Made by a program: the position numbers and the translations under genes | Origin: Bacillota bacterium | Lineage (GTDB): Bacteria > Bacillota > Clostridia > Christensenellales > DTU072 | DNA: 64,000 nt | Direction: 5' to 3' | Assembly: GCA_023394875.1 (NCBI GenBank) | Contig: JAEXAB010000001.1 | Location: forward strand, 320,588-384,587 | Shown here: positions 9,692-55,605 of the stretch, in pieces | Position numbering within the stretch: the stretch's first letter is position 1 | Layout of the letters: each line of letters opens with the position of its first letter | Notes under the pieces: model-generated | Database searches by the model: none | The model's input: only the letters and a program-made list of their open reading frames with translations | What the model was told of the DNA's origin: nothing

Positions 9692-9700
9692 GATAACGCT

Positions 9701-10627: not shown

Positions 10628-10629
10628 TT

Positions 10630-15051: not shown

Positions 15052-15060
15052 AACTACCTC

Positions 15061-16590: not shown

Positions 16591-16603
16591 ATCATTTGCT
16601 CCT

Positions 16604-16966
16604 TTATTTAATAACTCTGAACATGTCCGTGGTGATTATAACGTCTATTCCTGTGCCTAAAATGTCCTCTACTACAGTTTCTCCGATTTTTAATATTTTG
16701 TCAAGTTTGATTTTCCTTAAAACGTCCATCGCCTCAAGTATTTTTTCTTTGGGTAGTTCTCCTGCCGTCCTTACCGAAACAACGGGCAGCTTGTCAAAGC
16801 AGGTATTTACCGTGGTTGTCAGGCTACGCTTGGGACAAGTCAGTTCTTCGGTGGCAAACTTAATGCCTCTTGCGCATTTGTTGCCGACAACTGTTATTGT
16901 ACCGTTGTTGTTTTCTGCCTCCAAATGACAGCCGTTGGGGCAGACTATGCAAATTAGCTTGGTCAT
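16604..16966 (-). CDS. DUF1667-type small Cys-rich subunit of the three-gene anaerobic glycerol-3-phosphate dehydrogenase-like complex
   Basis: The ORF is 120 aa, with CIVCPNGCHLE...GNKCARG. It overlaps the upstream flavoprotein gene by 4 nt (16963..16966). Confidence 0.7.
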   Translation of the reverse strand: MTKLICIVCPNGCHLEAENNNGTITVVGNKCARGIKFATEELTCPKRSLTTTVNTCFDKLPVVSVRTAGELPKEKILEAMDVLRKIKLDKILKIGETVVEDILGTGIDVIITTDMFRVIK

Positions 16967-18195: not shown

Positions 18196-18197
18196 CT

Positions 18198-30800: not shown

Positions 30801-33800
30801 ATACACGCTCAAGTCATATTTCTTGGCTTCGCGGTATAAAGTACGGCTATAAGTGGTGCCGTCTTCTAACGTTACCGTAGCTGTAGAGGACAAAGTTTGG
30901 TCGGTTAGCAAGTTCTGATAAGGTTTCAGCGGGCTAGACGGTAAATCCATAGTGGAGAAGATGCTATAGCTTACTTGGAAAGGCAATACGTGCGCAATCA
31001 GTAAGGAGGCTTCTTCCAGTACGTTTCCTACCTGCTGTCCTACAGTCTTTAGTATTCCACCCAACAAAGGTATGATTGAGAAGGTTGTCGGGCTGTAAAC
31101 CAATAAAGCGATTAGGTCGTTTACACCTATTCTTTCGCCCAACAGGTTAACCGCTAAATCCTTTAAGTTGGACAGAGCAAATTCCTGCAACAGATAATGT
31201 ACAAGTCCTGCTCCCTCTTTAGCTAGAGCGCTTTGAGCCGCCTGCATAAAGGCTCCCTTTTCTTGATAGATATAGTTATATATCTTTATATCGTCTTCTT
31301 CGTTATATCTGCCGCGGTAGCGGTTGGTAAACTTGCTGAGCAGTTCTCCTTCGCCCTTTTCTTCAATTTCGTTTTCGGGATATTGAGTAAGGTCAAAGTC
31401 ACTTTCTTTGGTGTTTGCGCCAAGACTTATATCGGCAGCAGTCACCGTCTGTCCCATAGTAACGCCGGTAATACCCAGCATTCCGAAGAACAGATTCTGA
31501 ACGTTCAACAACAGATTGGTAATCATATTGGAGTCTATCCAGGCTTCTATATAAGTGTAAGTGTTGTATCTGTCGGCAACACGGCTACCTTCATAGATTA
31601 AGTTGCTGGTATCGTCAAGATAGGAATAGTCGTATTGCTGTTCTCCGTTGTCACCGTCGTTATGCGGTTCGCTGTCGATTATGTCTGCGCCTAGACGAAT
31701 GCGGAGTTTTTGTATCATAGCAGCGCTCTCACTTACCGTTTCCGACCAGTGGGTGGGACGCTTAGTAAGATTAATCTCAACATTATAGCTTGCCGCTCTG
31801 TTATCGGAGGCATTGACCGTTTCTGCTACACCCATTGTGGAAGTGGTATAGCTTGCCGATGACGGGTTGCCGACAACGGTGCCGCCCTGGGTAATGTTAA
31901 AGTTTTGATAAACCTTAGAACGGAACTTGAAGATATAATTGCCACCCACTAAGAATTCGGGCGCGGTAAAGCTGAACTTGCCGGCTTCGTCGACGTGAAT
32001 ACTGTAATTTTCGGGCTCTAAATCGTAGAAATCTTTAACGCCGATTGTGTGTCCGTTCAAGGAAACCCAGAATTCGAAGTCATCAACAGAAGGCACGACG
32101 TACTTATTAAGTTCGGTGTCATAATAGCGGATATAACCCATGAAAGTTACGCTTGTTACGTCGGTCTTAGTAAATATAATATCTACCTGCAGCGTGCTTC
32201 CTGCGCTTGCCGAACTAATATAGGTATCAAGTAAGCCTATATCGATGCTTGTTCTCATACCGGCAAAGGTATACACAAAGCCTTCAAACTTATAGCCGCT
32301 TAGCTTACCTGACAAAGAGTGATAGGTCTTTGATATATTGGTGTAATAATCTCTTAGGTCGGTATATTCGTCTACGTTAATAGAGTAATTACCCTTTGTA
32401 GCGGTAGTTAAGCTACTTACCGTACGGTTCAGGCCGCCGTCGACAACTATACTTGCTCCGCCGAAAGCCAATACGTTAGTAAGTTCTGCCATGCTTAAAG
32501 CAGGATTAACCATAAAGTAGGTCTTACCGGTTAAAGTTACCGTCTTCTTTCTATCCGCGTTTGCTTTTGCCAAAACTTGCGAACAGTTAATAGCGGCGCT
32601 TGTCTCTTTGGGCACTATCAAAACGTCGTTTTCGGAATAGGAAGTATAACCTTCTTTATAGATGGTTACCGTGCTTCTGTCGGTAAGAGCGTAGAATAAC
32701 TCTCCGACCTTTCTGTATCTTACGTTGTTGTAAACAAATCCTGCTTCTGCCGTAGGATTGATAGACGGATTATTTGTCAAATATTTCTTTACGCGTTCTA
32801 TATCCTGCTTGCCGGTTATGTGGTCGGTAATGGGCAGTTCTAAGAAATAATAGTAACCGTCTTTGTCGGTGGTTGCCTTATTGACAATACCGCTTCCCGA
32901 AGTAATCTCAACAACGGCGCCCTCAACAGGTAGTCCGTCGGTGTCCTTGATTATTCCGTAGAATCTTCCCGTTTCTCCCGCCGTATCGGTATCGGGGAAC
33001 ATAGTGTCGGGGAAGATAACAATGGTACCAATAGCAATACCTTTACTGATAAAGCCGTCTATATCGCCCTGCAAGAAGCTCTTGACGTCTAACGTTATAC
33101 CCAAAATGGTAACGGTAATTGACATACCCAAAGTTATTACCAAGGTATGGTTTTCTACGTGGACGGAAATATTGCCTTGCTTGTAAGAAGGCGTCTTTAT
33201 TGCCGCGTCTATGACGTTATCCATAGACTTATTGACTTCCAGTTTTCCACGGGCATATCTGTTTCTGAAGAATTTGGCTTCGTTGGTATCGTCTTCAAAA
33301 ATAGCCGTAGCGCCGCTGCTTATATTGGAAATCAGTTTGTAACCGGTTTGAATGATTTGCCACCAGCCAACGGGGTTGCCCATAGCGGCGGTTGCAATAT
33401 TGGATACAATCTGCGCAATCTTTATTATTTTTACTATCTGAATAATACCTTGGGCTACAGACTCTGCTCCGTCAAAGCCGTCGTCTTCGTCGGCATAGTT
33501 ATTAGGTCCGGTTTTGTGAACTGCGGGATATTTTGTAAATACGTCTTTTCTTGTCCAATAATCGGTACGTTTTTCTACGTAGAGTGTAAGGTCGTCAAGG
33601 AATATGCCGTCTAATACACTGTTAACCAGGTTGGCCATATTCATCGATATACCCTTGGAGCTTAGGATAAGACCGTTTACTCCGCCGTAGTTATTAAGAC
33701 TTTCGGGCAAGGCAATTATGTCGGTTAAGTCTTTATCTCTGCCGCCTGCTGCCTCTCCAACGCCGTCGTTTATTTTTATCTTTAATCCTCTTTCGGGGAT

Positions 33801-36800
33801 AGAAAGACCTAGTCTGTTGCCTTGAGAATCTACCTTAACGCTTAAACTGAGGTTGTTAAGTCCCTCATAAGTGTTCATGCTTAGGCTTATCTTTTCAAAA
33901 GCAGGTATATCCATACCAAGTAAGAGCTTGAATACTCCGGCATTGGGATTAATGGTTATTCCCTTATTGCCTAAAAGTACGTTAATGGTAGCCGCGCTCT
34001 TCTTGCCGCCGGGCGAAGTGGTGTTGCCGCCAGTATTTCCGATACCGACAGCTTTTGCCAAAGCGTTAAGCTCTTTATTATACTCATCGTCGCTCATGGG
34101 GAATGCTTCTCTGATTTCCGACAACCCTTCTTCTATGATTTCGATTACTTCTTCATCGGTCATTTTGCCGAATCTTCCGGCTAAGTTGTCGCTTACTAAG
34201 GAAGCTTTAAGTTCTGCCAAGCTTGATTCTTTGGTTACTTCTTCTTCATAGGAAATCTTTCTATGAGAAACAAGCTGCAAAGTCTTGCCTTCCGCGGTAT
34301 CGAAATTGAGCATATCGGAAAGCAACGCGCTTACGTCAATACCACTTGAGCCGGAGAATTGAGAAATTATATCAATTCCACCAAGTAGTTTACTCAAAAT
34401 ACTGCCAAGGTCAATACCGTTTAATGAGGTCTTGAAGAGCCCTAAGGTGCTTAAATCAACGTACACTATTTTGTTTACGTAGTACACTGCGAGCATAATG
34501 TCGTCGTTATAGTAAATTTCCAACACTAATATAGAATTGTTGTAGTTTACTAAGTCAATGGCTATGTCGAAGTTTAGGGTAAACGTCATCATAGTGTCTT
34601 GCATGTCAAAGTTAACGGAGTTTTCTTCTAATTCAAGAAGTTTTTCTAAGAATTCTTCCAAATCTTCCACGACTTCGCTCTTTGTGCCGTCGGGCTTTAA
34701 GGTTTGCAAGGTTATATCCAGTTGCAGACTTAGGTGCAGGTTCTTAATCTGGTCAATGCTTGTGCATTCTTCGGCGTCATAGTCGTTTACTATGGTCATA
34801 TCAATAACCGAGGATAGATTGTTCGCCTTGACAAGGTGGGAGAAGCTCTTTCTAATGTTGTAGCGGATGGAGAATTGCTTATTTTCGTCCATGACAAGCT
34901 GTATGCCCGATACTTCGGAAATACCGTCGCCGTCACTGTCTACACGACCTATCTTGAGATAGCTGAACATAGGAAGGTTCATAATAGCGGCAGGCAACGT
35001 GCCTTTCTTCAATATCTCTTCTCTTTCTTCATCGGACAGAGGTCCGCCGTTTTCCTCTTCGGCTTTTTCAAGGGCGCTTCTTGTCAAAATCGTGTCTAAG
35101 TTGCCCAGTAGCGCCATTAACAAGCCGCCGGTTATTGCTATGCTTACTTCTTCGTAATCATAGATAAACAGCAGCATATTCTGACCGAATTCCATATCGG
35201 CTATGGTGTTGTAGCGTAAAGCTCTCTCTTCGGCTTCGCTGATGTTGTTGGATATACCCGATGCAGCGTTCTGCGGCTGTATCGTTTCTTCTTCCTCAGG
35301 CTTAAAGCCGCTTGTTAGATCGGCAAGGAGACCTTTTACAAGACCGCCAAGGTCAATCCCCGACAGACTAAGTAAGGAGTATCCCAAGCCTCTTAAATCG
35401 ATATATACCGTTCCTCCGCCCGAACTTCCCACAAATGCGATACTAAGTATTCTCTTTGTAATGTTTCCGTTGCCGTCGCCGTAGCCAACGTCCAGTTCCA
35501 ATCTTAGTCTGCCGACATCGTTAAAGTCGATATAGGTACGCAAAGCGAAAGCTATCTCTATATTGAGACTGTCTTCGCTGCTTAGTATATTGAGTCCTAG
35601 TCCTCTTATTATGCTGTTGGATAATTGCGACATCTCAAGTAAAGTATTGAAGTCGTCATTAATAAGTAGGGAGCTGTTTACTTCTGCCACCCAAACGTAA
35701 TCGGCTATATTTTGATAGTTGGCAAACTTCGTGTTAATGGACTCACCGAAGAAGTTACTCTTTTGTCCGAAGCTGATGTTAACGTTAGCTATGCTAAACG
35801 AATAGTTAATCTTAGAGTCGTTTATTACGTTGCCGTCTTTGTCCTTAATGGACGCATCCACAGGCACGGTTATACTTAAGCTGTTGTTGATAAAGTCAAT
35901 AGCTATCTGAATGTTACCGAATTCGTCAAAGTTGAAATTAAACAACGCCGACATTAATGCTTGAATAATAGACGCCGACAACTTGATACCTAAAGTACCT
36001 TTACCAAAGGTAATACTTTCTACAATCTTACCCCAGTCAAGGTTGGAGAATATACTGTCTCCGCCCTCATTAGGTTGATCTTGTTCTTCTTCGGCGTATA
36101 ATAAGCGGCTATACAGATAAGAGCTGTAGTTAGCCCCGTCTATATCGTAAACGGTATCCGATTTGAAAATATCAAAAAACAGCTGTACAAGGTTAATTCC
36201 TAAGAAGTCGTATCCCACTTTGGGGGTAAGCATAAGTTTATCGTGATCAGAGTCTCCGCTGTCTACATAAATCTTCGGATCAAGAACGCCGTCTCCCTCA
36301 CCGTCATGGTTGAGAAGTCCGCCCACAAAGTAGATATTGGCAATATTGCTTCCGTTTAGATTATACATTCTGATACTAAAGTCAAAGGCAAATTGCTCTA
36401 TGTCAACGTCTAAAGCTATATCGATTCTTATTAATCCTTTTGCGTTGCGCAAGAATCTTAATTGGAAGTAAGTGTCCATTTCTTGCACGTCGAATAATTT
36501 GCTCCAGTCAAGAACGGTTTTTAGAACGTCGCTTTCCATATAAATACTTAGTGAAGCGGTAAAGCGCGCGCCGATAATTTCCGTCAATACGCCTAAAAGG
36601 TCGGCGCCCTCTTCTATATTGGTGCCCAGTTCGTAGAAACCGTCAAAGAAGCCGTTTTCATATTTACCCATAACGTCGTCATATAAGGTATTGAACGTTG
36701 CTTTATTGGTACTAATTAGAGTATCGTTAAGCAAGGTAAGATTGACGTCATAACCTACCGTTCCGGTATCTTCGGGGGTGTTTTTATGCAAATTAAGGTT

Positions 36801-39800
36801 CAAGGAGAAGTCGTCGCCGTATTCAATGCCCACCAAGCCTGATGTAAGAACCAGGTTAAGAAGGTCTTTCATTTCGCCGGTCAGGCTGTCTTTCCCCACG
36901 AATACTTTTACTATTTCAACCAACATATCGATGGTAATAATCAAAGCCGTTTCTTTGCTGCTTATCCTTATCAAAGCTTCGATTGCCTCGCCAAGAGTGC
37001 TGTCGGCGTTCTTAACTACCGAATAAAACTGTTCGATAGGAGTCATGGCGTTTTCCGCTTCTTCATCGGAATAGCCGTTATACGCTTTCATAATAAAGGT
37101 ATTGAGAGCCGCCATTTCCTCATCGGGATTAGCTCCGAACAGACCAAGCAGAACTCCGCTCAAGTCAACGGGTACCGCAACGCTTAATTTACTGTCAAAT
37201 ATCTCGGCTTGTCCGTAAATAACACCGCCGACAATCCAAATATGCAGAATAACTTGTTCAAACCTAATGTTTTCACCGTTGACATCATGCTCTATTATAT
37301 AGTACGTAAGCATCAGTTCGCCCACTATGGAGTTCTTGACGTCATTGGCGTTTTCAGAGAACAGCGCTGCAAAATTGACTCCCACTTGTCCTTGAATTGT
37401 GACGTAAATCATACTGCTTTCCATAAAGCTGATATCAAGGTCCAAATCAATGGGCAGACTGATTAGGTCTAATATATCAGTTATATTCAGATCACCTTGA
37501 TTGTAGCTAAAGGAAAACGATGCGTTGATGTTTATACGTAAAGTCAAATCGGAGTATTCGGTATATTCCGACTTCTCTTCGTCTGTCAAAACGTCTTTGA
37601 TACTGCTTACAGTTTCTCCGTTTTCGTTGACGTAATTGGACTTGATATCAACCAGCAAGCCAGAATCTTTACCGACTATGCCTATACCTAGGGCAAACCT
37701 GGCGCGGTTGTCTTTTCTTGCCATTGCTTCATCATAAAGCATGGTAAAGGCTCTTTGAGCAATAATACCGCTGTTGGTTACGCTAACCAGTTGCTCAATG
37801 GACGCCGCTTCTTCCAAACGTAGATATTCGATTAGGTATTGGCTCTTTTCCACAAAGCTGAGCATTTCCAGTATTTCTTCTGCGCTATAACCTTGTCCTA
37901 AGTTGGCTTTTAAGGTCAATTTTTCGGCTACTTGCGGATACAGAGAAATATAATCGGCAAAGTATTTGTTCCATATTGGCAAAGTCAAAGCGTTTTGGGT
38001 GTTGGCTAGTACATTGACGGCAATTACTATTCCGTCATACAGCTCAACGCTGGCGTTACTTAAAGTAACGTTGTTATTCTTGATATAATCAATCACCAAC
38101 AGTAAAGCTTCGGCTTTTAGTTTGGCTGTTGAGGTATTAAGAGTAGCTATATAGCTAAGCAAAACGGTTTCGTCGCTGTCGTTAAGGTTGATTGATGCCA
38201 CTAACGCGTCAAAGTCTATTGCCAGCGCGTTGGCGTAGGCTGTGGATGCTTGAATGTAATAAATACTACCGCCTAAGCTGTAAGTGTTGAATATAGCGCG
38301 GAAAGCGGAATTTATACCGGTTACCGAATAATTACCGTTGAAATATGTCAATATCATATCGCGCATTCTTTGATAGTCTTCGGTGCGGCCGTTGGTTAGG
38401 GACAATTGTGCGGAGTTGCTGACGATGTCGGCAAGGTCTCTACTCAAAGTCAAGATATTATTGTAAGACAGTTCGGAGAACTGGTCGAATAAACCAAGCT
38501 CGCTGATATATTCCATAAAGTAGATGCTTACCACCTCTTTATAGCTTGTCCAGACGTTGTTTAGTATATTCTTTAGTGCTACGCTTATAAGAATATTCTC
38601 TTTTTCAAAATTGATTGTTGCTACGTTGTAGCTTAATACCACGATTGCGGCAAACAATTCTCTCTTGCTGCTATTGCTAATAACGCCCGAACCGACTTCT
38701 TTTGCTGCGGTAATAAGGTTAGATATACTGCGGCAGTAATTAACGGTATCTTTATACGCGTTGGGTACGGCAAATCCGCCTTGAGCTATCATTAGGTCTA
38801 TTGCGTTTACAACTGTCGTAAGGTCATAACCGCCGCTTAATTCTTCTCCGCCGAATTCTTCGGTATAAATTTCGTATAAGTAATCGCGCAGAGCTAAAGC
38901 AAAGCTGTCATAACCGCTTACTATTGTACTGAGTAAATTAATGACGTCTGACTGACCGTTATAAATAATGTTATCAGCCAAAGCGTCTACTATGGTATCC
39001 ATATTATAAGCAAGTATCTCATAATATCTTAGGTCATAGTTATTGATCCATTCATTAAAGTTACTTATCTTAGGCGTATCGGATCCTACGTAAGCTTGCT
39101 TAAACTGCTCGCGGTAAGCGGCAGCCATCTTGACAATACCGCTTGCGGTAAGGTTGGTTATCAACAGTTCTTTTAGGGCAAGCATCGATGCTTCTTCCAT
39201 TATAGGATTAGCAAGCAACGCTTGTTTAAGGGCATAATATTCGCCGCTGTTGTTATCAACGCCTTCAATGAAGTCCTCAATTAGTCCTATCTTATAGACT
39301 TTGCCGTCTTTGAACAGTTCTTTGGCGGTGTTAAGGAACAACGCTTTTGACTGGGACATATTTAAGGCGTGAGCCGAACTCAAATTGAATTCATAGGTCT
39401 CGCATTTTACTATCAGTTCATACCACAACTGGCGGTAATCTCTTCTGGATACTTCGGCGCTCAACATCAGTATGCTTTCCATACGGCTGTAAATATAGTA
39501 TATAGCCTGATAATAGGTTTTTCCGCCGGCGTTTAACTGATCAAACACGTTAGAGCTGTTTATCGACGTCAAAGCCTCTGTGATGTTCTTTAACTTGGTC
39601 AGTTTGGCAAATATTTGAGTATCCAACAAACTGCGGAAATTGTTGCAGTAATCGGGTATTAATTCTATACCGTAAGTAGCTATCGACAAATTATTAATTC
39701 TGATATTTTCGGCGGTCTTTTCGGGAGACGGATCGCTGTAATTATTTGCAGCCTGATAAACTGCCTTGATATAAGAAAGCAGTTTGGCGGCATAACCGTA

Positions 39801-42800
39801 AGCAATATCAATATCGGTAACCAGACTGATGTCATCGGCAATCGGACAATAGCCAAGGCTTGCCTCTATGGTAGCTAAAGCTTGTCCGTATTCTTCGGAA
39901 TATTGGGGATTGCCGTTTTCATCGTCTTCTATTCTGTATTCTACCTGCTCAATACTGTCAAGAAGGTTCTTAGCGGCAGTAAGGTCGCTTAACATATCGA
40001 AAAGCGCCTGTCTCTCGTTTTCCACAATGACAGGTTCTAAGATATCCGACCATAATACAATAGTGTCGTTAATTAGGGCTATTACGTTGTTATAATAGTT
40101 ATCCGACAGATTGATAGAGCTTAAATTCGTGGGCAGAACGCTGAAGATATTTTCGCTGACCGTGCCGAAATTAGCATTCAAAATGCTTTCCAATCTGTCG
40201 TTATAGCCGTTAGTATTATAGAACCAAGCATGGTATAAATTATAGCTTGCGGCATCGTAATACTCTTCCCAAAGGGTGGAGTTTGCGCTGCGTTTTAGTA
40301 GATTATCCAGTAAGAACGCTTTGTTCTCTGCATTTAACTTCTTCTCCAGTTCTAAAATAACGTTAGCCGAAGCGTAAGTATTGATATCTGTTATTATTTG
40401 ACTTTCGTCAATAATGTCTTCATACAGTGTTTCGGCGGCTTCTCTGAACTCATAGATAAAGTCAAGATAGGTGTCGATATTGCTGATAACGTATTCTTTG
40501 GACTTAGCAACAAGGCTGGTTAAGGTGCTTTCGATAACGCTGTTAGCCGAAGAAATAACGGTGTTGTTTATTATTTCTTGTATGTCGCTGTAGAGTCTTT
40601 CGAACAAGGACGACCTCAAAATATTGTTGAGCTCTTCTATTCTTTCCAAAGTGGAGCTATAACGCATCCATTTATCCCACGCGTACTTCTTGATATACTG
40701 CTCGTTGGAAAGATTATTAAACAGCTTGTTAATTCTGTTGACCGCGGCTGTTACTTCGGCTACGTTGGTATTATCTCCGGTATAACCTGACATAGAAGAC
40801 GTCCAAACTGCTTTTGTCAAATTGCTGTAATTGCCGGATACAAAGTTATTAAACAGTCCGTTTAGTAAGGTATATTCGGCGCCGACAAGGCTCTTTAATA
40901 AGTAACCGAATGCGATAACTTCTTTTATTGTTTCGTCATAACTTCCGTAATAAGCTTCGACATAGTTGTTTGCGTCAACAACGGCGGCTGTCAAGCCCTT
41001 TATTTCCACATACTGATTGTAAGCAAGGTATGCGTTATAGAAGCTGTAACTTCTGATGTCGGCAAGATACCCGTCGATTATACTTTGATTGAGTCCGGTG
41101 ATATTCATATCGACAACTTGCGTTCTTACCAATACTGCCTTGATCGCGGCATCTATGGCTTTTCTGTTTTGATTGTCAAGTTCTTGTTTCGTCTCATCGA
41201 ACGTGTCGATAACGTCGGAAATTATCTTCAAAGCGGTAGATATGGAGATATTGTGTTCCAGACTTACTCCCTTGTAGATTTCTATAAAGGCTTCTATAGC
41301 CGCCATAGGTACGTTGGAGTAGTCGCCGTTCTTTATTCCGTTAATTACGCTAATTTTGCCATAACTTTGTATATCAAAACGTTGCAGCACGTAAGCCAAT
41401 GCTCTGACTGCCTTATAGCTGTCTGCAAGATAACCGTCTGCACCATAATTGTTGCTGTTTGTTATCGGGTTGCCGATATTGTTTACATTGTTGGCATAAG
41501 TACGCGCCGTAGTGATATAACCTTGCAATACCGCATCTGTTGTATCTAGAGCAAGCACAACCCAAACCATTACTAGCTTGAACATATCGTTTGCCGTCCA
41601 GTTAAGTTCTTCCTTGGGATCAGCTTCTTGAGTAGCTCCGTTTAAGATATTAAACTCAGCAGACGGCAAGTTGATTTCTTCATAAATGCTCTCCATTTCT
41701 AAGTTTATTAGCTCATTAAAGCTTATTTCTTTTAGGGAGAAGTCCGAACTATAGCTGTTGATATATGCCGTAGCCTCAGCAAAGTCTTGTAACAAAGTTA
41801 CTATCTTAGAATAATAACTGTTAATAAGGCTGTTATATGCTACGCTTAGGTCATAATCCGAAGAAGCGCGGGTTACGCCTACCAAAATATTGCTGTAATC
41901 TATCTTTGTTTCGTCAAAGAGGCTCTTAACAATCGCAGCTTTTAATGCTCTGACTGTTAACGTTGCGTCGCCGGTATATTTACTAGCCGCCGTCATCAAC
42001 GCCGAAATGTTGTTGAAAATAAGGTCGTAAGTAAATCCGCCTTCCTGATATGCGCTCATCGACACGCCCTTAGAAAGGTTATAGGTCTGCAAGGTTTTAG
42101 AGGTTACGGTAAGGATATTACCCAACGTTACTACGTCGACTCTGTTTAATCCCAACAGTACCAGTTTTTCATCGCTGTAGAACTCCGATTTAGCAAGGTT
42201 GTTCCAAACAACGTATTTTAGAATATTTACGTCGTCTTCAATAAGAGCGTTATTAATTGTGTTGGAACCAAGTAGCAAATCTTGCTTAAACTTGTCGTAG
42301 GCGTAAGCCTTGATTTCCAGTTCGGTTGCTTTGTTATACTTAGCTCTTGCAAAACTTTCTGCCGAAAGCATCAATGCTTTTTGATAATAATCGGTGGTTT
42401 CTAAGTAGTATTTATCAAACGCCAAAGCTTTCTGATAGACGAACAGCTCATCATACTTAGCGGTGTAAACCTTGATAGCTCCCGCCGAATCTGCGGTATA
42501 GTAAATTTGAGCGTACAGATACTTGAACCAGGCGCTCTGTCTTGCGTAGAGGTTGCGGAACAGATTGGTTACCAAATAGGTATAGGATACCGAATCGCTA
42601 CCGCTACCAAACAAACTTCTGATAGAATCAATCTTCTTCTTATAAGCGTTGCCGTTATAGCCCTCAGCCATAATCGCGCCTATGTCTCTTCCTGCAGCTA
42701 CGCACGCGTCAAACGCTAAAGCCTTGTTGCCGTGTAAAGAAATGAGAACGTTTAGTTCATTCTTAACTTCTAAATCGGTTACCGCGGCATATGCTTTATC

Positions 42801-45800
42801 CCATTCCATTTCTTTTAGGTAATCGGAATAGAACTGTTCTAATTTTATATTCTTTTGGTTAATATCGCGCACGCTATCGGCAGAATAATCAAAGCCGTAA
42901 GTAGAAGCTAGCGCATCGTTATAGTAGCATTCTATAGCCACATAATCATATAAGAACAATTTTGCTTGTATTTCGGTAAATTCGGTAAGTCTAGCTCTGA
43001 TTTTACTCAAAATTGCCGGCGCGTCCGTTCCCGTATCGGTTAGCCATGTATTTACTCTTGAGAGTTTTTGCGCGTCCGATAGGTTATAGTTGTCATAAAG
43101 CAAAGTATTTTCTAGCAATACCGCCCATACGTTGTCGTAAATAATGTAGGTAGCCGAAGTATTGTTCTGATACCAATAAACAAACTCATTGTTTAGAAGT
43201 TCGCTCATAAGTTTGCTGTCGGCGTCGTCTATTTCCTTACTTGGTAAATCCAATTGTATTAATATAGTAATACTTGGGTCAATGGACAGGCTTAAAGCAG
43301 GGGTGGTAACCGAATTAATAACTTCTTCCACTACCACGATTGTTTCTGCCATATCTACGCCCATAAAGAATTTAACTAAAGAGAATATAGCCCCTTGAGT
43401 CAATTGAATTGCAATACCTTTAATAACGTCGCCTATAATAGCTAAGGTACCTACGCCCCTTGTGGCTCCTTCGATGTTCTGCGGACGGGCGCCGTTGTAG
43501 AATTGTTCTATACTGTTAATTCTTTCTCTGGTCTCAGCGGCTTGCTCGGAGTCTCCTCCCAAAAGTGTAGAAAGTAATCCCATTACGTTGGTAATCTTAA
43601 CTTTACCTACGTAGAAGTTTTCGTTATTTGACAAGCCCGAAGCGTCGATATAAAGGTCGCCGCGGATATAGGATATACCGGCAATCTGCGTAATTTCTCC
43701 GGTTGTCTTATTCATAACGTTTAGATAAATCTTCGCCTGCAAGTCTTCCAGTATAGATTTAATATTAACGGTTAGGTTAATATCTACGTATATGATGGAA
43801 TCAACGTCGTTAATAAGTTCCAATATAGGAGCTATTTGTCTTGTAAAGCCTTGGGCTGCCAAATCGATATTGGCAATAGATAAGACGTAATAAAGCAGTT
43901 CTTCAAGATTATAGATACCTTTCTCATCGGTAATGTTTATCATTATTTTAGTCTTGAAGTAAACGGTATCCAGACGGTTTAATTCTCTGTATTCTTCTAC
44001 GCCGCTAACCGTTGTGCCCGACGACTCAAAACCTACATATAAGCCGTTTAGTTTTATTGTTATACCTAATATAGGTCTCAAATCAGCGGAGCCTGTATTT
44101 AGCGGATCATCGCTCATTGCTACCTGCAAACCGAAAGCAAAGCTCTTGGAGTTTTCGTTTACCTGCACGCCTTTTAGGTATATTTGCAATGCGGCGTCGT
44201 TAAACAAATCAAAACCGCCGAAACCGAACATTTTTAATAGCGAAGAAATTGCGGCTTTCTTTACAATCAGATAGAAGCCGTCACTGGTTATGTTGGCAGA
44301 CAGACCTAATTTGATATTGTTATTAGCGGCAAAGCGTAAATCTTTGGCTATGCTTTCCCAACTTGCTGCCGACGCGCTATTAGCCGCGCCAAACAAGGAA
44401 TCGGCAATGTTGGCGATATAAATCTTGTCGCTGTTGAGGTTGCTTAGGTTGATATACAGATTCTTATTATAGTAAGTTATTACCGCCCATTCTTTGTTCT
44501 GGTCAAAATACATGCCCTCTGCCGTGCGGTATATCCTAAGTCCTACTCTTAGGGTAGAACCTGACTTTAAGTGGTCAAGGAAGTTGGAATCTTCACCGTT
44601 ACCAAAGTCTAGGTCAGCTAAAATATCCAAAGCAATGGTTATTTTGTGAGTATTGTTTAAGGTAAGCAATACTTCGGCAAGACTGGTAATAAGTCCGGTC
44701 AGACTCTTTTCCAGTAGGGTATAAACAGGGTCTTTCGATAAATCTTTGCCCTCTGTAGCTCCCAAATCGAACTCCAGATAAACAGTAGTTCTAATAGAAA
44801 TCTTGGGTAAAGAGTTTTCTACTACCACGTAGCCGACAGGGTCGCCGTTTTCATCTTTTTCCAGGCTGTTTTCGTCAAAAGTGATATATTTTTCTTGGTC
44901 TAAGTCAAGCTCTATGGTATGGATACTTAGGTTAAGGCTTATGCCTCTGCCTGTGGAAATACCCTTGTTGTTTACGCTCTCAAAGCGTATTCCTACCCTT
45001 ATTAAGTCTCTGTCGGCGTCGGTAAATATGCCGGGAACTTCTCCACCATAGGTAGCTACGCTGAATATATCCAAAGTAATACTAGGTTCGCCCACCTGCG
45101 TAATCATACTCTTGATATTGTCCATGCCGCCTAAATTAAGGAAGCCTAATACTGCGTAAATGGCGTTGGCGGCTATTTGAATAGTTAGACCGCTCTTTAG
45201 TAAGTCAAGGTTAACTTGAGCGTTTTCGCTGTCGGCTGCGTTGGCAATCTTAGCAGCCATTGCCGCGGCTACTATAACTTTGGAAACAGAGCCTTCTTCT
45301 TCTACGTCAATGCCCAAAGGATATGCGCCGTTTGAAGCAAAGACGGTACCAAACAAGCCTCTAATATACTCAACGGCGTTCTTTATATATATTCTTTGGA
45401 TATTAAACCTTTCGGCGTTGAGATAAATATAGTTGGTTTCTGCTCCTGTAACAGGGTCCACTTCGGAACCAAGGACAAATTGCAGAACAATGTCGTTAAC
45501 ACCGTTTCTTTGTTTGATATTGCCGTTGCTATCCAAAGCATAAAGGGTTATGGATAGGTCGGTTGTGCTTAGGTTGCCGTCGAATAAGTCAAATAAATTG
45601 AACCTTGCTTCCATAATTATGCGGTAATAATTGCTTATATCGCTCAGTATGGCAAGTATGGGCGCAAGATCAATTACTTGTCCTTGCAATTCAAGATTAA
45701 AGTTCATACCGCTAAGCAGTGTATTAACTAAAGTTGTGAAATCGTATTCGGTGTTTTCTTCCAAATCCCAACCGAAATCAATTTCCAGTGCGGCGTAAAC

Positions 45801-48800
45801 GTATCCGAAATTCTTGTCGAATATCGCAAACTCACCGTTTGAGTCTTTTTGAACTTCTCTTAGATAATCGGCAATGGTTATTGCCTCTCTCTTCTGAATG
45901 ATATTATGATTTTCGTCCTCATAATCTACCCAAACTTTCTTGGTAAGTTGATTATCTTCAAATTTGATGCCGGCTTCGCTGAATTTCGCGCTTATATATA
46001 GGTTAGCAACTTCGGCGTCTACTGCGATTATGGAATTATCATACAGTAAGCCAAGTCTTATTTGACCTTGCTCATGCACCGCTTCTACTATTAATTGCGG
46101 CAAGTTCGAATATGCGTTGTCATAGTATTCGTTAAGTTCATCTAAGTTAGCATCGTCAACGTCCACTTTGTACCAAATTTGAGCGCCGTCTTCGGTAAGC
46201 ACGTCACTTAGTTGCACCATAATTTTCTTAGATGCGTCTCTTCTGGGGTTGCCTTCGCTGTCTGTTAATATGGTATAGCTTTGCTGCTTGCGTATAATAA
46301 ACTTATTCTCGCCGTTTAGTACAGCGGTCATTTCTTCCTTATAATAGGTCCAAGCGGCAAAATAATACTCGTTGTAAGTCAACTCTTTCTTAGCGTTGGC
46401 TACATAGGTTATTAAGCTGTTGTTTAGATACGCTTCGGCTTTTTCGTTGTTAAAACCGTCCGATGCCACCAGCATATCCCAAGCGTATGCCTTCCAAATA
46501 GTGGTTACCGTTGAGTTATAGCTTCTATAAACGGTGCCTTCAAAGATAAATATATCTTCGCTCATCATAAACTGACCGTTAGAATCTTTAGCTATATTAT
46601 TTATAGCGCTCATCTTGTCGGTTATATTACGGTATTCACCCTCGATATTAGCTTTGATTTCCAACCAGGCTTTGCTCTTTGCATTAAGGTCCAAGCTGCC
46701 GTTTGCTATAAAATGTCTTTGATAAATAGCCTCATATTCGGCTTTGTCGTCTTCCGACCACATATAGTTCTTTGTAAAATACTCAAATGCAGTCTTCTGT
46801 ATATACAATAGACGGTTAGCCGCAGGTATATTTGGCATAGAAGCTACTGCGCTGGTAGCGGCCAGATAAACGTCGTTAAGGGCTGTTATCTTTGTATATA
46901 CGTCTTCCAAATATAATTCTAAAGCCTTGCCTTTGGCATAATAGAGAGAAAATTCAAGCGCCATTGCCGAAGTTTCGGCTCCGATAGCGTCATCGTCTTC
47001 CTGTCTCTCCTTGAGGTCTTTTACTTCGCTTGCAACTAATTCTCCGTAGATGTCCCAAGCTTGAATTTTCTTTTCTTTGGTTGTTCCGGGAGCGGTTTGC
47101 GTTTCCAAAATTATACCGGCACGGGTATATTCCTCATCGGAGAGGTTTTCCAAAAGGGCGTCCCACGCGCGCGATTTATCATTATAATTTTCTTCCAATA
47201 TCTCGCCCATCAGAGTTAGAATAACGTCTTTCTTGTATTGCTCCTCTTTAAGTTCTCCTACCACTATATCTTCCACAAACTGCTGGAAAGCGCGGTTGGT
47301 CAAACTCTTGACGTCATTGAACGCCTCATTAAGCAATTTCACTAGAACGTTGGCTGTAGCGGTAACGGTAAAGCCGTAAGTATTGCCGATAACACCGCTG
47401 ATAAAGTCTTCTAACGGAGTTTCGTTGATCGTTCCGGGTGCGGCAGAACTTAGACCGGGATTTTTATTTAATTCTAAATTCTTATTGACAGCGTACTTTA
47501 AGTACAACGTATATTGCATGTAATCATAATCGGTCGCCATAGAGGTGTTGACTACGGGAGAAGCCGATTCGGGAACTTCCTCTTCGGTGCCGCCGCCGAA
47601 CAGCTTGCCTAAGTTATCCATAACTTCTTTTGCGGTTTTCTGGAAATCAACTATCTTTATTCTTCCCACGTTGAACGCCGACAAATCAATGTAAAGGGTA
47701 AGGAACTCATCTATACCGTCGGTCTCTTTAACAAGATAAATGCCGATAATTAATGCTTCGGAATAGTAGCCGTTTTCAAACGTGGTGTTATACAGCTCTA
47801 AATAAGCCTCAATGCCCGACGCGCTAAGTAGTCCTAAAATGTCTAGTGACAGTTCGGGATTTTCTTCTTTGGCTAAATTGTACGCATTGAGTGTGGCTAC
47901 CAACTGCATAATGTTGGCTTTTGCTTCCAACCTGAAAGTAACGTTGGCATAAACCGATTGGATTACGTTAAGTATAACGTCTAAAGCAAAGCTGTCGTCT
48001 TTTAATAAAGCGCGTAGCAAATCGCCAAAATTGATACTTGTCATATCCATTTCGGTTTCCGCAGAATCTTCGCCTTCGGCGCCAAGATTTAATTGACCTT
48101 CAAAATATAGTTTGAAATCAGACGTCCAGTTTTTGTCAATAACGGTGTAATAATCAACGTACTTGCCGTTTACTAATATCTTCTCTCTGATTGACAAGGA
48201 CAGCGGGTCGGTAAGAGAAAGCTTAGGATATTCTATGCTCAAGCCTAAGTTAAACAAACCGTCAAGCTCCAGGTCTAGTCCAACTAAGTTACTGCCCAGC
48301 GCCTCAATGGTAAGATTGGGGGTATATCTGTTGAAATAACCCTCTATGTCGATACCTAGCGTTGCCATCAAGGAATAAAGAGCGGCGCCGGTAACTTGCA
48401 ATAAAATAACCGAAGTGTTTGCTCCCTCTCTCTGTGTGCTGATACTAAGTATTATTTCCTTAGCAATAGCGCTTGCCGCGGCATTGTTGAGTCTTGCGTT
48501 AGTATCGGGAGCAGCGGGGGAGGGCTGTTGATTATTTCCGCCGCCTGCAATTAAGTCTCCCAAATTAATGCCGAACGCTTCGCTCAAAGCAATAATAATT
48601 GCGCTTACGTTATGAAGCTTTATAGGCTCTACACCTAAGAACTTCAAAGAAATGTATACGTCGGCAACACCGTCGGCGCCTACTACAACGTACAAGGACA
48701 ATACGTTGCCAAGATAATAATCTCCGGCAAGACCGTATATCTCATCCCAGAATTTTGCGTTTCTCTCGGCTTCGGAAAGGTCGGAATAGAAAGTAAAGAA

Positions 48801-51800
48801 CTCTCCTTGCTCAAGTTCTACCATTTTCTGATAGCAGTAGAAACCGTCGTTAATTATAAGTTCATCTATATATTGAGTGGTGCCGGGAGTGGGATTTTCT
48901 TGAAGCAGTCTTGTCTTCATTGCCTTCCAAGCCAGGTCTTTATTGTATTTGAACTCTGCAAGTATATTATTCATATACTCTCTTCTGGGAGCTAAGCCGT
49001 TATATAGTGTTTCTTGATTGTACTTAGAAGTCAGATTGAGGTACAATTCTACATTCTTGAGTTCTTTTAAGGTATTCAAATTGACGTTCGCGCTGATATT
49101 AAAATAAGTTGCCTGAGAGAATACGTCATCTAAAGCAACGTCCAATTGCAAGCCAATTTCGGGGTCGCGGTTATTGAGCCAATAGTTGGCAAACATCTTG
49201 ACTGCGTAGTCAAAGTTCCAGTTACTGGCTACGTTTGACAATTCGAATGTTGCTTTACCTCCCCAGCTTAAACCTACGGTGGAAAATTCTTCCACTTCCG
49301 CCCAGTCAACGTTGTCGATATCCTCAGCGTATTCAATAACGGTATCCCTAAACGATACGTCGATATTATGTAAAGTAAGGCCCATTTCCGTTCTGTGGTC
49401 TTCAAAATTGGTCACTCTACCCATTTCGTCAAGATAAACAACGGCTGATACACCCAAATCTCCGGTAAGATTGAGATTAAGCCTTACTCCGAAGTCAATA
49501 GCGCTCAATTCATCTTCTAAATCAAGTCCGGCTAAGGCAAAAACAGTTATGAAAGAAGACTTAGTTAAAGCCACGCCGATATTGCTTTCAAGGAACAGCA
49601 AGTCAAGATAGGTGCGCATGTCGATGCCTTCTTCGGCGGCATTCGCTGCGGCAGCCCCTAAAGCGCGGTTATAAGAGGTGTTCAACGTAGCGGCAGAAGC
49701 CGGCGCGTTTCCCGGTTCTTCCACGTCGATGCCCACAAACTGACGTAACGCTTTGGTAAGCGATACAAGGAATGTGGAGTCGAAAATTTCGGTTATTCCT
49801 GTTACAACGCTACTTACGTTACGCAATACAACGTTGCCGATATTGAAAATATTGGTAGAGACATAAACTTCTCCGGTTAATTTGGAAGCGTTATCTTCTA
49901 CGCCGCTACCGTCGTAAATAACCGTTAAAACCTTCTTTACTCCATCAGGACCGAGTTTGTTCTGGGTCATTGTGATTTTGAACTTACTCTTGTAGAAATT
50001 GCTGAAAACAAGCCAAGCTTCAACTTTGATATTGAGGCTGTCGTTCATTTCTCCAAAGAACTGCAAAAGAATGCTTGTTCCCATATCGTTAAGGTCGATA
50101 AGAACGGCGCCTTTAACAAGTAAATCCCAGGCAACAGCCGAAAAGATAACATCCCCGGGTTGTGCATTGGCATAGTCATCACGTTCATCTTTCTTGTCTT
50201 TTATTTCTTTTTCTGCGGCTACGAAACGCTCATCCATTTCCCTTCTTTGAGCATCGGTTAAATTATCTTTCTTATAATATTCCGACCACGCTAAGGCTTT
50301 AAGAGCATTTTCGGTCATTGACGTACCTTTGTTTGCATCAACTATCTGTTGATAGTGGGCGTTCAAATCGGCTTGCCTGAATTCGGAATTGCTAAAGAGT
50401 GAGCTGATAGCGTCGGTAAGGTCATAATCGTTACGATTGGTTGTGTTACCCTCTCCCAATCTGTTTCTAATAAACAAAGACGCTTCCACCGCTACATAAA
50501 TTGCATCGGGCACGCCGTCCGTTGCTCCTTCGGGCGGATAGGTGTTGTTACTGGACACTCTGTAATTAGGTCTCTTAGCAGGGTCTACGCTGACGCTTAT
50601 ATTTCCTACGCTAAGGTCTATTTTGTATACGTTATCCAAGCCTAGTGACAAAGTAATGTCAAGACCGTTATTCATATCCAGTTCCAGATCCAGACTGTCT
50701 ATGGTAACAAAGTCGGAAACTTGGGCAAAGTTGAGCATGGTCAGCACAACTCTTATAGCGACTTCCGATAATTTTACCGATACCTTGCTGTAGCCGTAAA
50801 GGACTTCTAAAGAAACTTCGGTATTATTGACAATAGACGGGCTTGCGTGATTTATTGCATAACCGCTATAATTACCTTCTCTTGGATTAAAGGCGTTTGC
50901 CAATTGCTCCAAAGTAGCGGGAGCATTGGAAACTGCAGACGGATTGTTTATTATATTGCCGTTGGCGTCATAATAAGTAAGCGCGGCGGCATTAATAGGA
51001 TTTATCACCGCGAAACTTGCCATTCTTTGTCTTACGCGATAGTAAGTAACGGCATATAATTCCTGTGTAGTAACGTTTCTGGACGTATATTTGGCGTTGA
51101 CTTCTTTCTCCAGATTTTCGTTAAAAACTTGTTCGTAGCGTATCTGATAATCTTCACTCTCACGAATAGCCGCAGAAGTGGCGTTCTTATATTTGCCTGC
51201 GTATAAGTTATCTTTATCGGCTCTTAGTTCGTCAATTACGCTTAACGCCGTACGGTTTTGCAAAGTCGCATAGGCGGTAGATTTAATGTAAACCGCTCTC
51301 AAATAATTTTTGATTTCCTGAACCGTTAATTCCAGCTCACTTTCCATAAAGGCTTTTTGCTCGCCCAAAATACCTGTTTTATTATAGGTTTTATCCCAAA
51401 TAGTTTCGTATTTGGCAACTAAATCTTTATAATAACCGTAAGCAGCCGACTGGAGTTTGTTAAAGAACAATCTTTCGTCAAATTCATAATCATCGTCATC
51501 GGAAACGCCGCTTTCCAATCTGTCTTTTTGCTCAGCCAGATCATAAACGCTGATTTTCAGGACGTTTCCGTTACCTTGCTGCATGGGATTGATAAAAGCC
51601 ACAAGCACGTTATTGTTATAAATATTAATAACACCGGCATCGGTTATGGAGAATACTCTGGAAGTATTCTTTAACGTCATTTCGTTTTCGTAGTCAGTAA
51701 AATTGAAGTTGTTGTTGACGTTGTTGTAGTTGTACAAGTAAATAAATCCATCATTGCCTACCAGATATTTATAGTTGGTAATGGGATAAGATCTGGAATA

Positions 51801-54800
51801 ATCCTTGTAGAAATTATCAAAGAAGTAACTAAGCGTCTGTTGCTTCATTACCGCATCCATTAAATTACGCTTGGAAACATAATAATCGGCAGGGTCAATA
51901 TAGTTGCTTGCCGTCTCATTGTACATCAAATCCCAAAGTAAGCTAACAGCTCCGGTATAAGTACCGGCAAGGTCGGAAATTGTGACAGTGCTTATACCGA
52001 AGTAAGATAAATCGATGTAAGCTTTGTTATCTTGAATATAAATACCGGCTATTACTTTATAGGTATTGCCGTCTTTTGCAGAATACCCTAAGCTGTCTAG
52101 TATGTTGGTATCAAATAAAGCTATGGTAAGATCACTTGCCAAAAGGTCGTTAATATTGATATTGCCCACAACCGCAATACCGATGTTAAGTCCTCTGTCA
52201 TAGTAATAATTGTTGTTCATTCTAAGAGCGATAGAATTTAGTAACTGATATATGAACCCGCCTTTAGCCGCGTCTAATTTCAATAAATCTACCAGCATGC
52301 CCGGGAGATTTTCGTTTAATTTGTCGGGCTCATAAATAAGTTCGTTAGCGCTTAAATTTAAGTGTACTTCCAGATTGGCGGAAATAATAAGCGTCTGCAT
52401 CCAATCGGTTATGGATACATAACTTGTAGAGCTGTGACCGCCCACAAAAGTGATTTCCGATCCTTTCTTTATAGAAAGGGTATCAATGAGGTTTAAGTTT
52501 AGATAAAACGCCTCTTTTTCGGTGCCGCCACTGTCCACAATGCCGATATGAGCGGTTATATATCCGCTGTCTTTTAGATGGGCTACTGCATCGGCAAGCT
52601 CAAAGTCCGCCCAGTTTAAGGGAGCGCCGGTCTGGTCGTAAGCATAGGGTAAGCCCTCTTTAACCACGTACAGCTGCTTGAATTTTTCTCCGTTGGAGTT
52701 GATTATTTCGTTTTCATAGATGAGATTGCCGTCCTTGTCGTATTGCAAAGCGGTGCCTAGATGTAGATATATACTTCCGTTGACTTTGGGGAGCTCTCCC
52801 GATAAATCCAACTTCATAAATTGTAGCAAGACCGAAAGGACTTGGGCGTTCATAATGACGCCTAATCTGCCGTCGGCAATACTCACTCTGTCTAAAGCGC
52901 CGGCAATAAGGTCCAATATGCTATTACCGTCGGTTGTAACTTCAACCTCATCGGAATTTGCCACGGGACTGAACGCCATAGATGCATTGACTACCCCCAA
53001 TAAGCCGAAAATTCCACTAAGATCCAAGCTCATGTTTTCCAGCATGCTCTTAATGCCTACATTCTTAATGCTTATCTTCGGAATGGCGCCGTCAACTATT
53101 TTGGTAATGGGCAGAACTGACCCTAATTGCGTTACCAGGTCATAGCCTTCTTTAACTTGCGTGTTGAGATAGAGGGTATCTTCGTTACCTGAGAAATACA
53201 AGCTCATGAAAGGATAAGGCTCTCTGCTACCCGGTGTTTTTATCAGATACAAATCAATTAATAAGCCAACTTCGGAGAACTTTAAGAGGTTTATACCTGC
53301 CTGAATTTCATACTCTATACTTAATCTGCTGGTATTTTCTATACCCAAAGACAGGAAGACGTTATTAACAAATGCCCCCACAATGGCGGACAAATCCAAT
53401 TCGGTGCCTCCCGAACTACCCAGTTCCACATTACCGGTAATCTTCGCCCCGTATTCCATAGAGCCTGACATTGACTTAAAGTCGGCGCGCAACGCTTCGG
53501 CATTTTCCATTACGTTGCCGTTTTTGTCTATACCTATCGCAGTAAAGTCAAAATTAGGCTTTTTGATTAACGACAAGCCTGTATTATAGGTGCCGTCTTC
53601 GTTGGTGGAGCCTAAGCCGATACTTAGTCTTAGTGACTCTGTAACGCCAAGGTTAATTCTTATGGAATCAAGAGGGTCTTTTAGGTCTATGGACAATCCG
53701 AAATTATTAATACCAATATCAACATTGGGTATGAACAGCCCCAATAAAGAGTTGATACCGTAATTGTCAAAACCAATGGAGAATATGCTTTCCCCTTTAG
53801 GCGGGAAATGCAAATATTTTAGATTGCCGTTGTTGTCCTTTGTAAGTAACAACGTCAATAATCCGTTCAAATCAAAACCGCCCTCTTCATCTTCCTCGGC
53901 ATTGGCGGCGTTATTGGGACGCGTCGCCGTCGTGGTGTTGGGATGATACGGGTCGATATATTTCATATATTCGGACAGTAATCCGGGAATTTCGTTACTG
54001 CCCGCCAGAACTTGAGTTATATTCAAATTCGGCAATCGCAACTGCGGAATAAGGCTCTTGCCTCCGCTGGTTAGGTTATGGGTGTCGATATAAAGGGTAC
54101 TAAATAAAACCGTACTGCCCGTTTGCATAGACAAATCGGGGGCAAGATAAAGGGCAATTACCTCTCGGTTGTTATAGTTGAAGCTAACTTGGGCTTTGTT
54201 GTTGGCGTTATTGAACAAGTCAAGAGAAGCAGCGACTTTTACGTCAAATTCATAATTAGTATCCCCCGCAACCTCAATAGGCATATTACCTAATGCCCCT
54301 AAGTCTCCCAGCATATTGCCAAGCAGACTGTTAATGGTCAATTCTTCGGTGGTATCGTTTTCCACCTGCATTTTGGCGTTTAATTCTATGTTGGTAAAGC
54401 TACCTTGGCTATAAACGGTGCCTTTACCTGCCGAACCGAAGTTATATCCCGCCATTTTTATGTCAACGGAGTTGGTGTTGCTTGTCTGCAGCTTGAAGGG
54501 GCTTACAGTCAACTCAACGTCATATTCGTTTGTGGCGCTGTCGATATCAAGACCAAAACCGTTAAAGATGTAGTCCTGTTTGGAAGTGCCGTCGGCTTGG
54601 GCTACTTTGCCCATCTGCGTTACCGCATAAAGCCTTGCCGTCATGCTAGGCCATTTCTTGTTGATTATGTCTTCCAGACCAAATCCAAGGATAGGTCTTA
54701 ATATATCGTCCATATTGGAAGGAAGTCCAAAACTTTCCCAACTGATTACTAGATTTAGGAAAGTACTGATGCTAATCTTCCCTTTCATAATCATGCCCAT

Positions 54801-55575: not shown

Positions 55576-55605
55576 ATTATACGTCCTAGCGCTCGTATGT
55601 GTCAA
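55576..55605 (-). promoter_or_regulatory. near-consensus sigma-70 promoter dedicated to the giant gene
   Basis: On the minus strand it reads TTGACA (55605..55600), an 18-nt spacer, then TATAAT (55581..55576). An AT-rich (TA)n/UP-like tract lies upstream at 55615..55637. The predicted leader of about 45-55 nt contains GGGAGGAG and the GGAGA Shine-Dalgarno. Confidence 0.65.

Follow-up and report, generated by a model that had tools for sequence, protein, structure and literature searches.

A giant predicted lipoprotein of an uncultured clostridial lineage contains 14 ancient repeat units in fixed order

A giant gene with a predicted lipoprotein signal peptide

The window analyzed here is a stretch of 64,000 nucleotides (nt) from a Bacillota bacterium (Clostridia; Christensenellales; DTU072), corresponding to positions 320,588 to 384,587 of contig JAEXAB010000001.1 (assembly GCA_023394875.1). 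The giant gene within it is a single minus-strand open reading frame (ORF; 21816..55529) of ~33.7 kb, with 11,237 codons counted from the first ATG, free of internal stops and with the same base composition as its surroundings. The peptides quoted from it in a first-pass annotation, which was made from the letters without database searches, were found exactly where that annotation had placed them. Comparisons at the sequence level confirmed that the product contains an internal repeat of 14 units plus a partial 15th, and the gene is considered here a member of an undescribed giant-lipoprotein family of uncultured Clostridia-type bacteria.

Translation probably starts at Met6 (nt 55514), giving a product of 11,232 amino acids (aa), since the sequence GGAGA is located 8 nt 5' of this codon, while the first ATG (55529) has no ribosome-binding site nearby. 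In public assemblies of the same sample the gene was called from Met6 (11,232 aa, without Pfam match), and the N-termini of relatives, which read MKxxLxK, are in line with this start. A terminator-like hairpin followed by a T-run closes the upstream gene, a promoter-like site comes next (Table 1), and the giant gene appears to form its own transcription unit. The N-terminus carries a signal peptide whose final residues match the lipobox pattern [LVI][ASTVI][GAS]C, with Cys28 as the predicted lipidated residue; this peptide is the sole transmembrane-grade hydrophobic segment of the whole protein. A lipobox signal peptide was also present in every N-terminally complete relative examined (n = 11), ending in AAC, LSC, VGC, VAC or AGC. 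Neither an LPXTG motif nor a C-terminal membrane anchor was found in the giant protein, whose C-terminus ends in ...TFVLYTYIYIASK.

Fourteen diverged units in one protein

The presence of 14 motif-bearing units, proposed in the first-pass annotation, was confirmed, and the spacings reported there were reproduced exactly by the anchor tyrosines of the end motif (Table 1). As seen in the sequence, the module is ~300 aa long and finishes with the C-terminal motif Y-I-D-L-S...L-L-G-G, an acidic, Ala- and Pro-rich linker being found after most units. A strict regular expression for the end motif gave eight matches, all within aa 1-7,100, against 0.77 expected (2,000 shuffles, maximum 6). When profile hidden Markov models (HMMs) were built from this protein only and each unit was left out in turn, 11 of the 14 left-out units outscored every stretch outside the model-building units, with units 3, 11 and 12 scoring weakly.

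The alignment of relatives over this region was sliced into 14 unit alignments and all pairs were compared by hhalign. Units 3-11 recognized one another with probabilities of 83-98% (E 1e-6 to 4e-15, 150-250 columns), unit 1 matched units 14, 4 and 2 (96, 94 and 90%, respectively), unit 12 matched units 5 and 13 (94 and 85%), and unit 13 matched unit 14 (98%), while 62 reversed-profile decoys reached a maximum of 16%. When the window protein and its four closest relatives were left out of model building, the resulting unit-core HMM matched all 14 units (5-60 bits), 13 of them above the best reversed decoy (10.9 bits), and gave no match in the insertions described below or in the C-terminal 3,800 aa; units 5 and 6 were split by short internal inserts, and unit 12 was weak. 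With the relative P0007 held out instead, the unit-core HMM returned exactly 14 matches in that protein (30-91 bits, ends 193...4056) and none in its C-terminal 3,600 aa.

The second conserved block that had been described for each unit is likewise real: with an HMM of the N-terminal block, 10 units outscored every reversed decoy (best, 4.6 bits), and units 4, 8 and 14 were at or below that score. An extra N-terminal block was detected at aa 7164-7255 (10.8 bits against the same decoy score) and constitutes the partial 15th unit. The whole segment aa 7068-7400 was considered as a full 15th unit and rejected, as it is not significantly unit-like overall and only its N-terminal block was detected.

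The repeats had been described as too diverged to be visible at the nucleotide level, and blastn of nt 33480-55352 against itself indeed returned nothing. Self-BLAST of the whole protein gave the identity match only, and a jackhmmer search started from unit 14 did not progress beyond two units of the protein. Chunked BLAST recovered weak but correct unit pairs, the best of them between aa 139-207 and aa 7007-7071 (E = 1e-4). The statement that such units build the first 7,300 residues was upheld as to the units themselves but not as to their extent: they account for only ~4,300 of the first 7,070 residues, because three long helical insertions occupy much of the rest.

Table 1. Features of the giant gene and its product, listed from the promoter-like site to the C-terminus.
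Feature	Window position (nt)	Residues (aa)	Strand	Basis
Promoter-like site TTGACA, 18 nt, TATAAT	55575..55605 (approximate)		-	direct sequence reading; putative function
Lipoprotein signal peptide with lipobox, MKSNLLKFIILALCIVMLISVAA followed by C	55446..55514		-	hydrophobicity and lipobox pattern
Unit 1, half-size, C-terminal core only, anchor Y155	54930..55379	51-200	-	hhalign; pLDDT 80-91
Unit 2, anchor Y479	53958..54929	201-524	-	hhalign, model, unit-core HMM
Unit 3, anchor Y796, starts with low-confidence linker aa 532-550	53007..53957	525-841	-	hhalign, model, HMM
Unit 4, anchor Y1170	51885..53006	842-1215	-	hhalign, HMM
Helical insertion A (~355 aa), in linker before unit 5	50820..51884	1216-1570	-	local phmmer against relatives
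Unit 5, anchor Y1888, short internal helical insert ~aa 1700-1790	49731..50819	1571-1933	-	hhalign, HMMs
Unit 6, anchor Y2291, short internal helical insert ~aa 2170-2255	48522..49730	1934-2336	-	hhalign, HMMs
Unit 7, anchor Y2612	47559..48521	2337-2657	-	hhalign, HMMs
Unit 8, putative N-terminal block (tentative)		2690-2745	-	HMM match 2666-2754, 4.6 bits, equal to decoy level
Helical insertion B, inside unit 8 after putative N-terminal block	46113..47294	~2746-3139 (bounds approximate)	-	relatives' alignment, N-terminal-block HMM
Unit 8, main part, anchor Y3368	45291..46112	3140-3413	-	hhalign, HMM
Unit 9, anchor Y3691	44322..45290	3414-3736	-	hhalign, HMMs
Unit 10, anchor Y3959	43518..44321	3737-4004	-	hhalign, HMMs
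Unit 11, N-terminal block	43230..43517	4005-4100	-	HMM match 3979-4114, model positions 38-114
Helical insertion C (~1,850 aa), splits unit 11	37695..43229	4101-5945	-	relatives' alignment, N-terminal-block HMM
Unit 11, remainder, anchor Y6103	37086..37694	5946-6148	-	hhalign, HMMs
Unit 12, most diverged, anchor Y6420	36135..37085	6149-6465	-	hhalign; weak in HMM tests; collinear with relatives
Unit 13, anchor Y6708	35271..36134	6466-6753	-	hhalign, HMMs
Unit 14, anchor Y7022	34329..35270	6754-7067	-	hhalign, HMM; paralog-alignment model
Post-unit segment, conserved in relatives, holds partial 15th unit	33330..34328	7068-7400	-	HMM, relatives' alignment
C-terminal region, beta-rich, ~3,800 aa	21819..33329	7401-11237	-	collinear with C-terminal halves of four full-length relatives

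Relatives and conservation of the array

In order to find relatives, an exhaustive phmmer search of 1.84 billion cluster representatives was run with aa 1-1200 as query. This single 1,200-aa query was chosen because half-versus-half profile and phmmer tests had failed, the divergence between paralogs being too great for scoring over whole sequences, where the bias correction was large. The search returned 45 related protein clusters, 26 of them at E<=1e-30, and included four complete relatives of 7,826, 7,125, 7,809 and 7,376 aa. The few relatives with a name were annotated as "hypothetical protein [Clostridia bacterium]" and came from metagenome-assembled genomes of Clostridia, and no Pfam domain was found in the relatives searched.

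Local phmmer comparisons showed that the four full-length relatives are collinear with the window protein across all 14 units and the C-terminal region. Orthologous units, compared collinearly, shared 25-29% identity, while paralogous units shared ~14-17%. As units are closer to their positional counterparts than to their paralogs, the 14-fold array predates the divergence of the family. These identity values, together with the occurrence of the same 14 units in the same order in the full-length relatives, agree with the old, fixed architecture that the first-pass annotation had envisaged.

Other search strategies recovered few family members. A word-indexed homology search with aa 5950-7320 gave no match although relatives exist, the word prefilter missing them; the family-alignment query of the homolog search returned six proteins only, and the unit-core profile one fragment only. 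Scans of GTDB genomes with the window protein and with an 85%-identical relative gave no match, and literature searches turned up no description of the giant lipoprotein family. In one relative (ENA ERZ16268247 scaffold_9117; L005 7308-10957) the gene was called as two overlapping pieces of 423 and 794 aa, which suggests a frameshift or an assembly error.

Lineage-specific helical insertions

The three anomalous spacings listed in the first-pass annotation correspond to true insertions, that is, to stretches skipped by the distant full-length relatives. Judged from composition and sequence pattern, the insertions are helical and lineage-specific. Together they comprise ~2,600-2,800 residues, depending on the bounds taken for the second one, which may extend up to aa 2661-3230 (size ~400-570 aa). 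The closer relative P0002 has insertion A, whereas P0007, P0008, P0014, P0015 and P0020 lack it; the window protein has this insertion in common with a 41%-identical relative. Insertion C was absent from all four full-length relatives, with residues 2809 to 2824 of P0007 bridging window residues 4095 to 5947, and gave no Pfam or PDB sequence match.

A short motif, K-x-x-A-W-[DSKLT]-x-[WLIY], recurs in the insertions (KSRAWDALL, IQAWDIYG, KKYAWDKWM, KARAWDVWY, ARTWDKWY) and was located at aa 1747, 2200, 2260, 2788, 2824, 2954, 3016, 3059, 4950, 9061 and 9154. Given the last two positions, a similar helical insert also interrupts the C-terminal region (~nt 27930-28592, aa 8980-9200). Weak BLAST pairs were observed between aa 2742-2838 and aa 8978-9075.

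Fold of the unit and possible lipid binding

The first-pass annotation did not recognize the unit, and the same was found here: no match was obtained in Pfam, NCBIfam or PDB sequences, the latter searched with three different profiles. No Pfam domain was detected in aa 1-7,400, and PDB sequence and profile searches with the units, the N-terminal region, insertion C and the C-terminal region were empty or returned noise. The sole family match in the giant protein was a weak CarboxypepD_reg-like (beta-sandwich) hit at ~aa 7525-7567, in the C-terminal region. A crude map of secondary-structure propensity was uninformative.

Two structure models were obtained. That of unit 14, based on a pseudo-alignment of paralogs, had a mean predicted local distance difference test score (pLDDT) of 61.5 and showed a helix, five strands, a helix, five strands and a helix, the first five-strand block lying below pLDDT 50. 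The AlphaFold2 model of aa 1-850 (units 1-3; 20 family sequences) reached a pLDDT of 73.4 and a predicted template modelling score (pTM) of 0.58. Its modules combine short helices with 10-12 long strands that run antiparallel and reach up to ~20 residues; segments 27-50, 532-550 and 833-850, and with them the linkers after units 2 and 3, were of low confidence. The beta-solenoid put forward among the folds in the first-pass annotation does not agree with these models, which show long antiparallel strands and interspersed helices instead.

When the aa 1-850 model was searched against the PDB with Foldseek, probabilities above 0.5 were obtained only for structures of one superfamily: LprG of M. 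tuberculosis (3mh9, 3mh8 and 3mha; 0.84-0.90, E 2-5e-3, ~300 aligned columns, template modelling score (TM) 0.32-0.34), Borrelia LolA (8t5t and 7tpm; 0.69-0.72) and the Bacteroides LolA-like 4mxt (0.54). This pattern raises a first alternative, in which LolA/LprG-like open half-barrel units, each with a hydrophobic cavity, would form a membrane-anchored chain of modules binding lipids or glycolipids. Such a chain would bind or store hydrophobic molecules or pass them from module to module between the membrane and its distal end, as a "bucket brigade" and not a passive stalk. We regard it as unlikely, yet the weak LprG/LolA signal of the aa 1-850 model makes lipid binding by the units the leading alternative. 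With its ~10-12 antiparallel strands and interspersed helices, the unit is compatible in secondary structure with the LolA/LprG fold, and LprG-type proteins are themselves lipid-anchored lipid carriers, an N-terminal lipid anchor being predicted here as well. A fixed count of individually conserved units also suits specialized modules better than a spacer. The structural matches, however, stayed at TM 0.30-0.34 even when normalized to the small target, with a root-mean-square deviation of ~11 Å, and the single-unit model of unit 14 gave nothing meaningful in Foldseek, LprG and LolA included. Moreover, hhalign of all 14 unit profiles against LprG (sequence verified against 3mh8 and 3mh9) and LprF gave probabilities no higher than 0.2%, a value also reached by reversed decoys; no Pfam match to the LolA, LolB or LppX_LprAFG families was found, and the PDB sequence-profile searches were empty. 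LolA, LolB and the LppX-LprG proteins are also single-domain proteins of ~200 aa, while the unit described here is ~50% larger and occurs 14 times in tandem.

A second lipid-related alternative is a continuous repeating beta-groove (RBG) of the AsmA/TamB/YhdP or VPS13/ATG2 type, in which the units, joined edge to edge, would make a very long hydrophobic channel through which lipid could flow in bulk from the anchoring membrane to a distal contact; we hold it to be very unlikely. Similarity to AsmA/TamB, for which the first-pass annotation had proposed a test, was not detected by sequence or by Foldseek against the PDB: Chorein_N, AsmA, AsmA_2, TamB(DUF490), DUF748 and DUF3971 were not found in the whole protein (Pfam hmmscan, E<=1), AsmA-type Pfam families were absent from 18 unit pieces (E<=10) and from four relatives (E<=0.1), and the 50 best Foldseek matches to the aa 1-850 model included no TamB, Vps13 or Atg2 structure. 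An RBG repeat consists of about five antiparallel strands plus a loop or helix, and the pattern of the unit-14 model resembles two such repeats (PMC10345924), but the five-strand part of that model is the one below pLDDT 50, and units 2-3 have 10-12 strands without the strict 5+1 pattern. The giant protein shares with TamB, YhdP, VPS13 and ATG2 an N-terminal membrane anchor, placed here directly before beta-rich repeats, long amphipathic antiparallel strands interrupted by helices or loops (the strands being seen in the sequence), great length and very low sequence conservation between repeats (PMC10345924). The pTM over three units suggests, in addition, some defined inter-unit geometry. Weakly against a groove, low-confidence acidic linkers follow units 2 and 3, which in the model may suggest modules on a string rather than a continuous structure. 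The anchor predicted here is a lipid and not a transmembrane helix, and the protein is ~10 times longer than bacterial AsmA-like proteins and far longer than the width of any envelope. Clostridia, to which the named relatives belong, are classically single-membraned and would thus lack a second membrane that a bridge could reach. The models thus describe a unit fold that is possibly a LolA-like half-barrel and not demonstrably of the AsmA/RBG type.

A lipid-anchored stalk as the favoured interpretation

With moderate confidence, we interpret the repeats as a stalk on which a giant, lipid-anchored surface protein presents its beta-rich distal region of ~3,800 aa. According to this proposal, the protein would be exported through the Sec pathway and then lipidated at the lipobox Cys28, which would keep its N-terminus attached to the cytoplasmic membrane at the outer leaflet. 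The N-terminus would be followed by a short tether, modelled with low confidence, and then by 14 tandem alpha/beta modules of ~300 aa, in each of which a few short helices accompany ~10-12 long antiparallel strands. These modules are ancient paralogs that had reached their present number and order before the family diversified, and they therefore behave as 14 individually conserved parts rather than an expandable spacer. Most likely, they would form an extended, segmented stalk of tens of nm (70 nm or more as estimated from general domain sizes) that passes through the wall and keeps the C-terminal region at a distance from the cell, where it could bind a surface, a polymer or another cell. 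The lineage of the window would have lengthened the stalk by three helical insertions, placed in a linker or in unit loops. Lipidation, surface exposure, an extended shape and a binding role are what we infer for this protein, as is the "very long fibre" of the first-pass annotation. In favour of this interpretation, the neighbouring genes encode surface proteins.

Several observations weigh against this interpretation. No adhesin, carbohydrate-binding or enzyme domain was recognized anywhere in the giant protein. Typical adhesin stalks have near-identical repeats that vary in number, unlike the fixed number and per-unit conservation seen here, which hint that each unit has a specific role. 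The sole consistent fold matches, those of the aa 1-850 model, are lipid-binding half-barrels and point to the lipid-carrying chain instead. Finally, the conserved neighbourhood is not universal, the pair of genes upstream of the giant gene being missing beside two other relatives.

A further reading is one that we think quite improbable: hydrophobic half-barrel modules of LolA/LprG or beta-taco type might align into an extracellular lipid-carrying bridge of at least 70 nm, held in the membrane of the producing cell by the N-terminal lipid and with the distal region docking on another cell or surface. Such a bridge would correspond, in a bacterium with perhaps one membrane, to the bridge-like lipid-transfer proteins of eukaryotes, but would act from cell to cell.

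As a lipid-anchored stalk, the protein can be compared with Gram-positive surface proteins that are likewise giant and built from repeats, such as Ebh of S. aureus and Giant1-5 of Apilactobacillus kunkeei (PMC12863079). Like them, it would be secreted, several thousand to more than 10,000 aa long and built from tandem modules of the kind thought to form elongated projections, and its neighbouring genes are rich in other surface proteins. Unlike them, it has an N-terminal lipobox anchor and neither LPXTG nor a C-terminal transmembrane helix, and its module matches no Pfam family, while theirs are of the FIVAR/GA, Ig-like or beta-solenoid types. Its units are also ~15% identical and occur as 14 in fixed order, not recently amplified and without a DNA-level repeat.

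The repeat module is therefore real and had not been described as a building block of giant bacterial surface proteins; the function that we give it is putative. More than 11,000 residues of one protein, and likewise a whole family of proteins of 7,000-11,000 aa, had been blank to annotation. The data presented here give a first anatomy for this family (14 fixed units, N-terminal block, C-terminal core, linkers and lineage-specific helical inserts), and the repeat definition is a ready seed for a new domain model. Very old units that are fixed in number and order are not usual in surface stalks and suggest module-specific roles. If the weak LprG/LolA signal holds, the array would represent the first case of lipid-binding half-barrels arranged in tandem on a bacterial surface.

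Gene neighbourhood and host

Two genes of the minus strand are located upstream of the giant gene. The one directly upstream encodes a 285-aa protein without family (window 55724-56581), and the other a 1,086-aa lipoprotein with Big_2 and a transglutaminase-like core (window 56595-59855). The same pair (1,118 and 288 aa), together with divergent mini-RNase III (mrnC) and rlmB genes, precedes a 50%-identical relative (JGI metagenome, L004 3473-7706).

A further alternative is a wall- or matrix-embedded structural scaffold, for example part of a surface layer or intercellular matrix, devoid of a specific function of a distal head, with the neighbouring transglutaminase-like lipoprotein cross-linking or processing the giant protein. 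The association of the Big_2/transglutaminase-like lipoprotein and the 285-288-aa protein with the giant gene in both genomes is in favour of such a scaffold, as is the lack of a recognized enzymatic or binding domain in the giant protein. We nevertheless consider it a very improbable explanation: the upstream pair does not accompany the two relatives mentioned above, a promoter-like site of its own precedes the giant gene, behind the terminator-like hairpin, and no SLH, CWB2, LysM or other wall-binding domain was detected in Pfam scans of the giant protein.

Downstream, a gene for a 587-aa membrane protein (window 19997-21760, minus strand) starts 55 nt past the stop of the giant gene and may be co-transcribed with it. 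Its product has an N-terminal signal or anchor and MBG_2; a transmembrane helix is located around residue 480, and the C-terminus carries a Listeria-Bacteroides repeat. Inside the giant gene, two antisense ORFs of ~155 aa were observed on the plus strand (33147-33614 and 41085-41549), both of which most probably exist by chance.

The window belongs to a 517-kb metagenome scaffold, and its remaining part carries housekeeping and metabolism genes of an anaerobe. These include a glycyl-radical enzyme (pyruvate formate-lyase-like) with its radical S-adenosylmethionine activase and a glycerol cluster (window 7208-10627, plus strand, and 13279-19898, minus strand), the latter with an FGGY kinase, two flavin adenine dinucleotide (FAD)/pyridine-nucleotide oxidoreductases, DUF1667 and an FAD-linked oxidase. 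The glycyl-radical enzyme and the glycerol cluster mark the host as an anaerobe and are unrelated to the giant protein.

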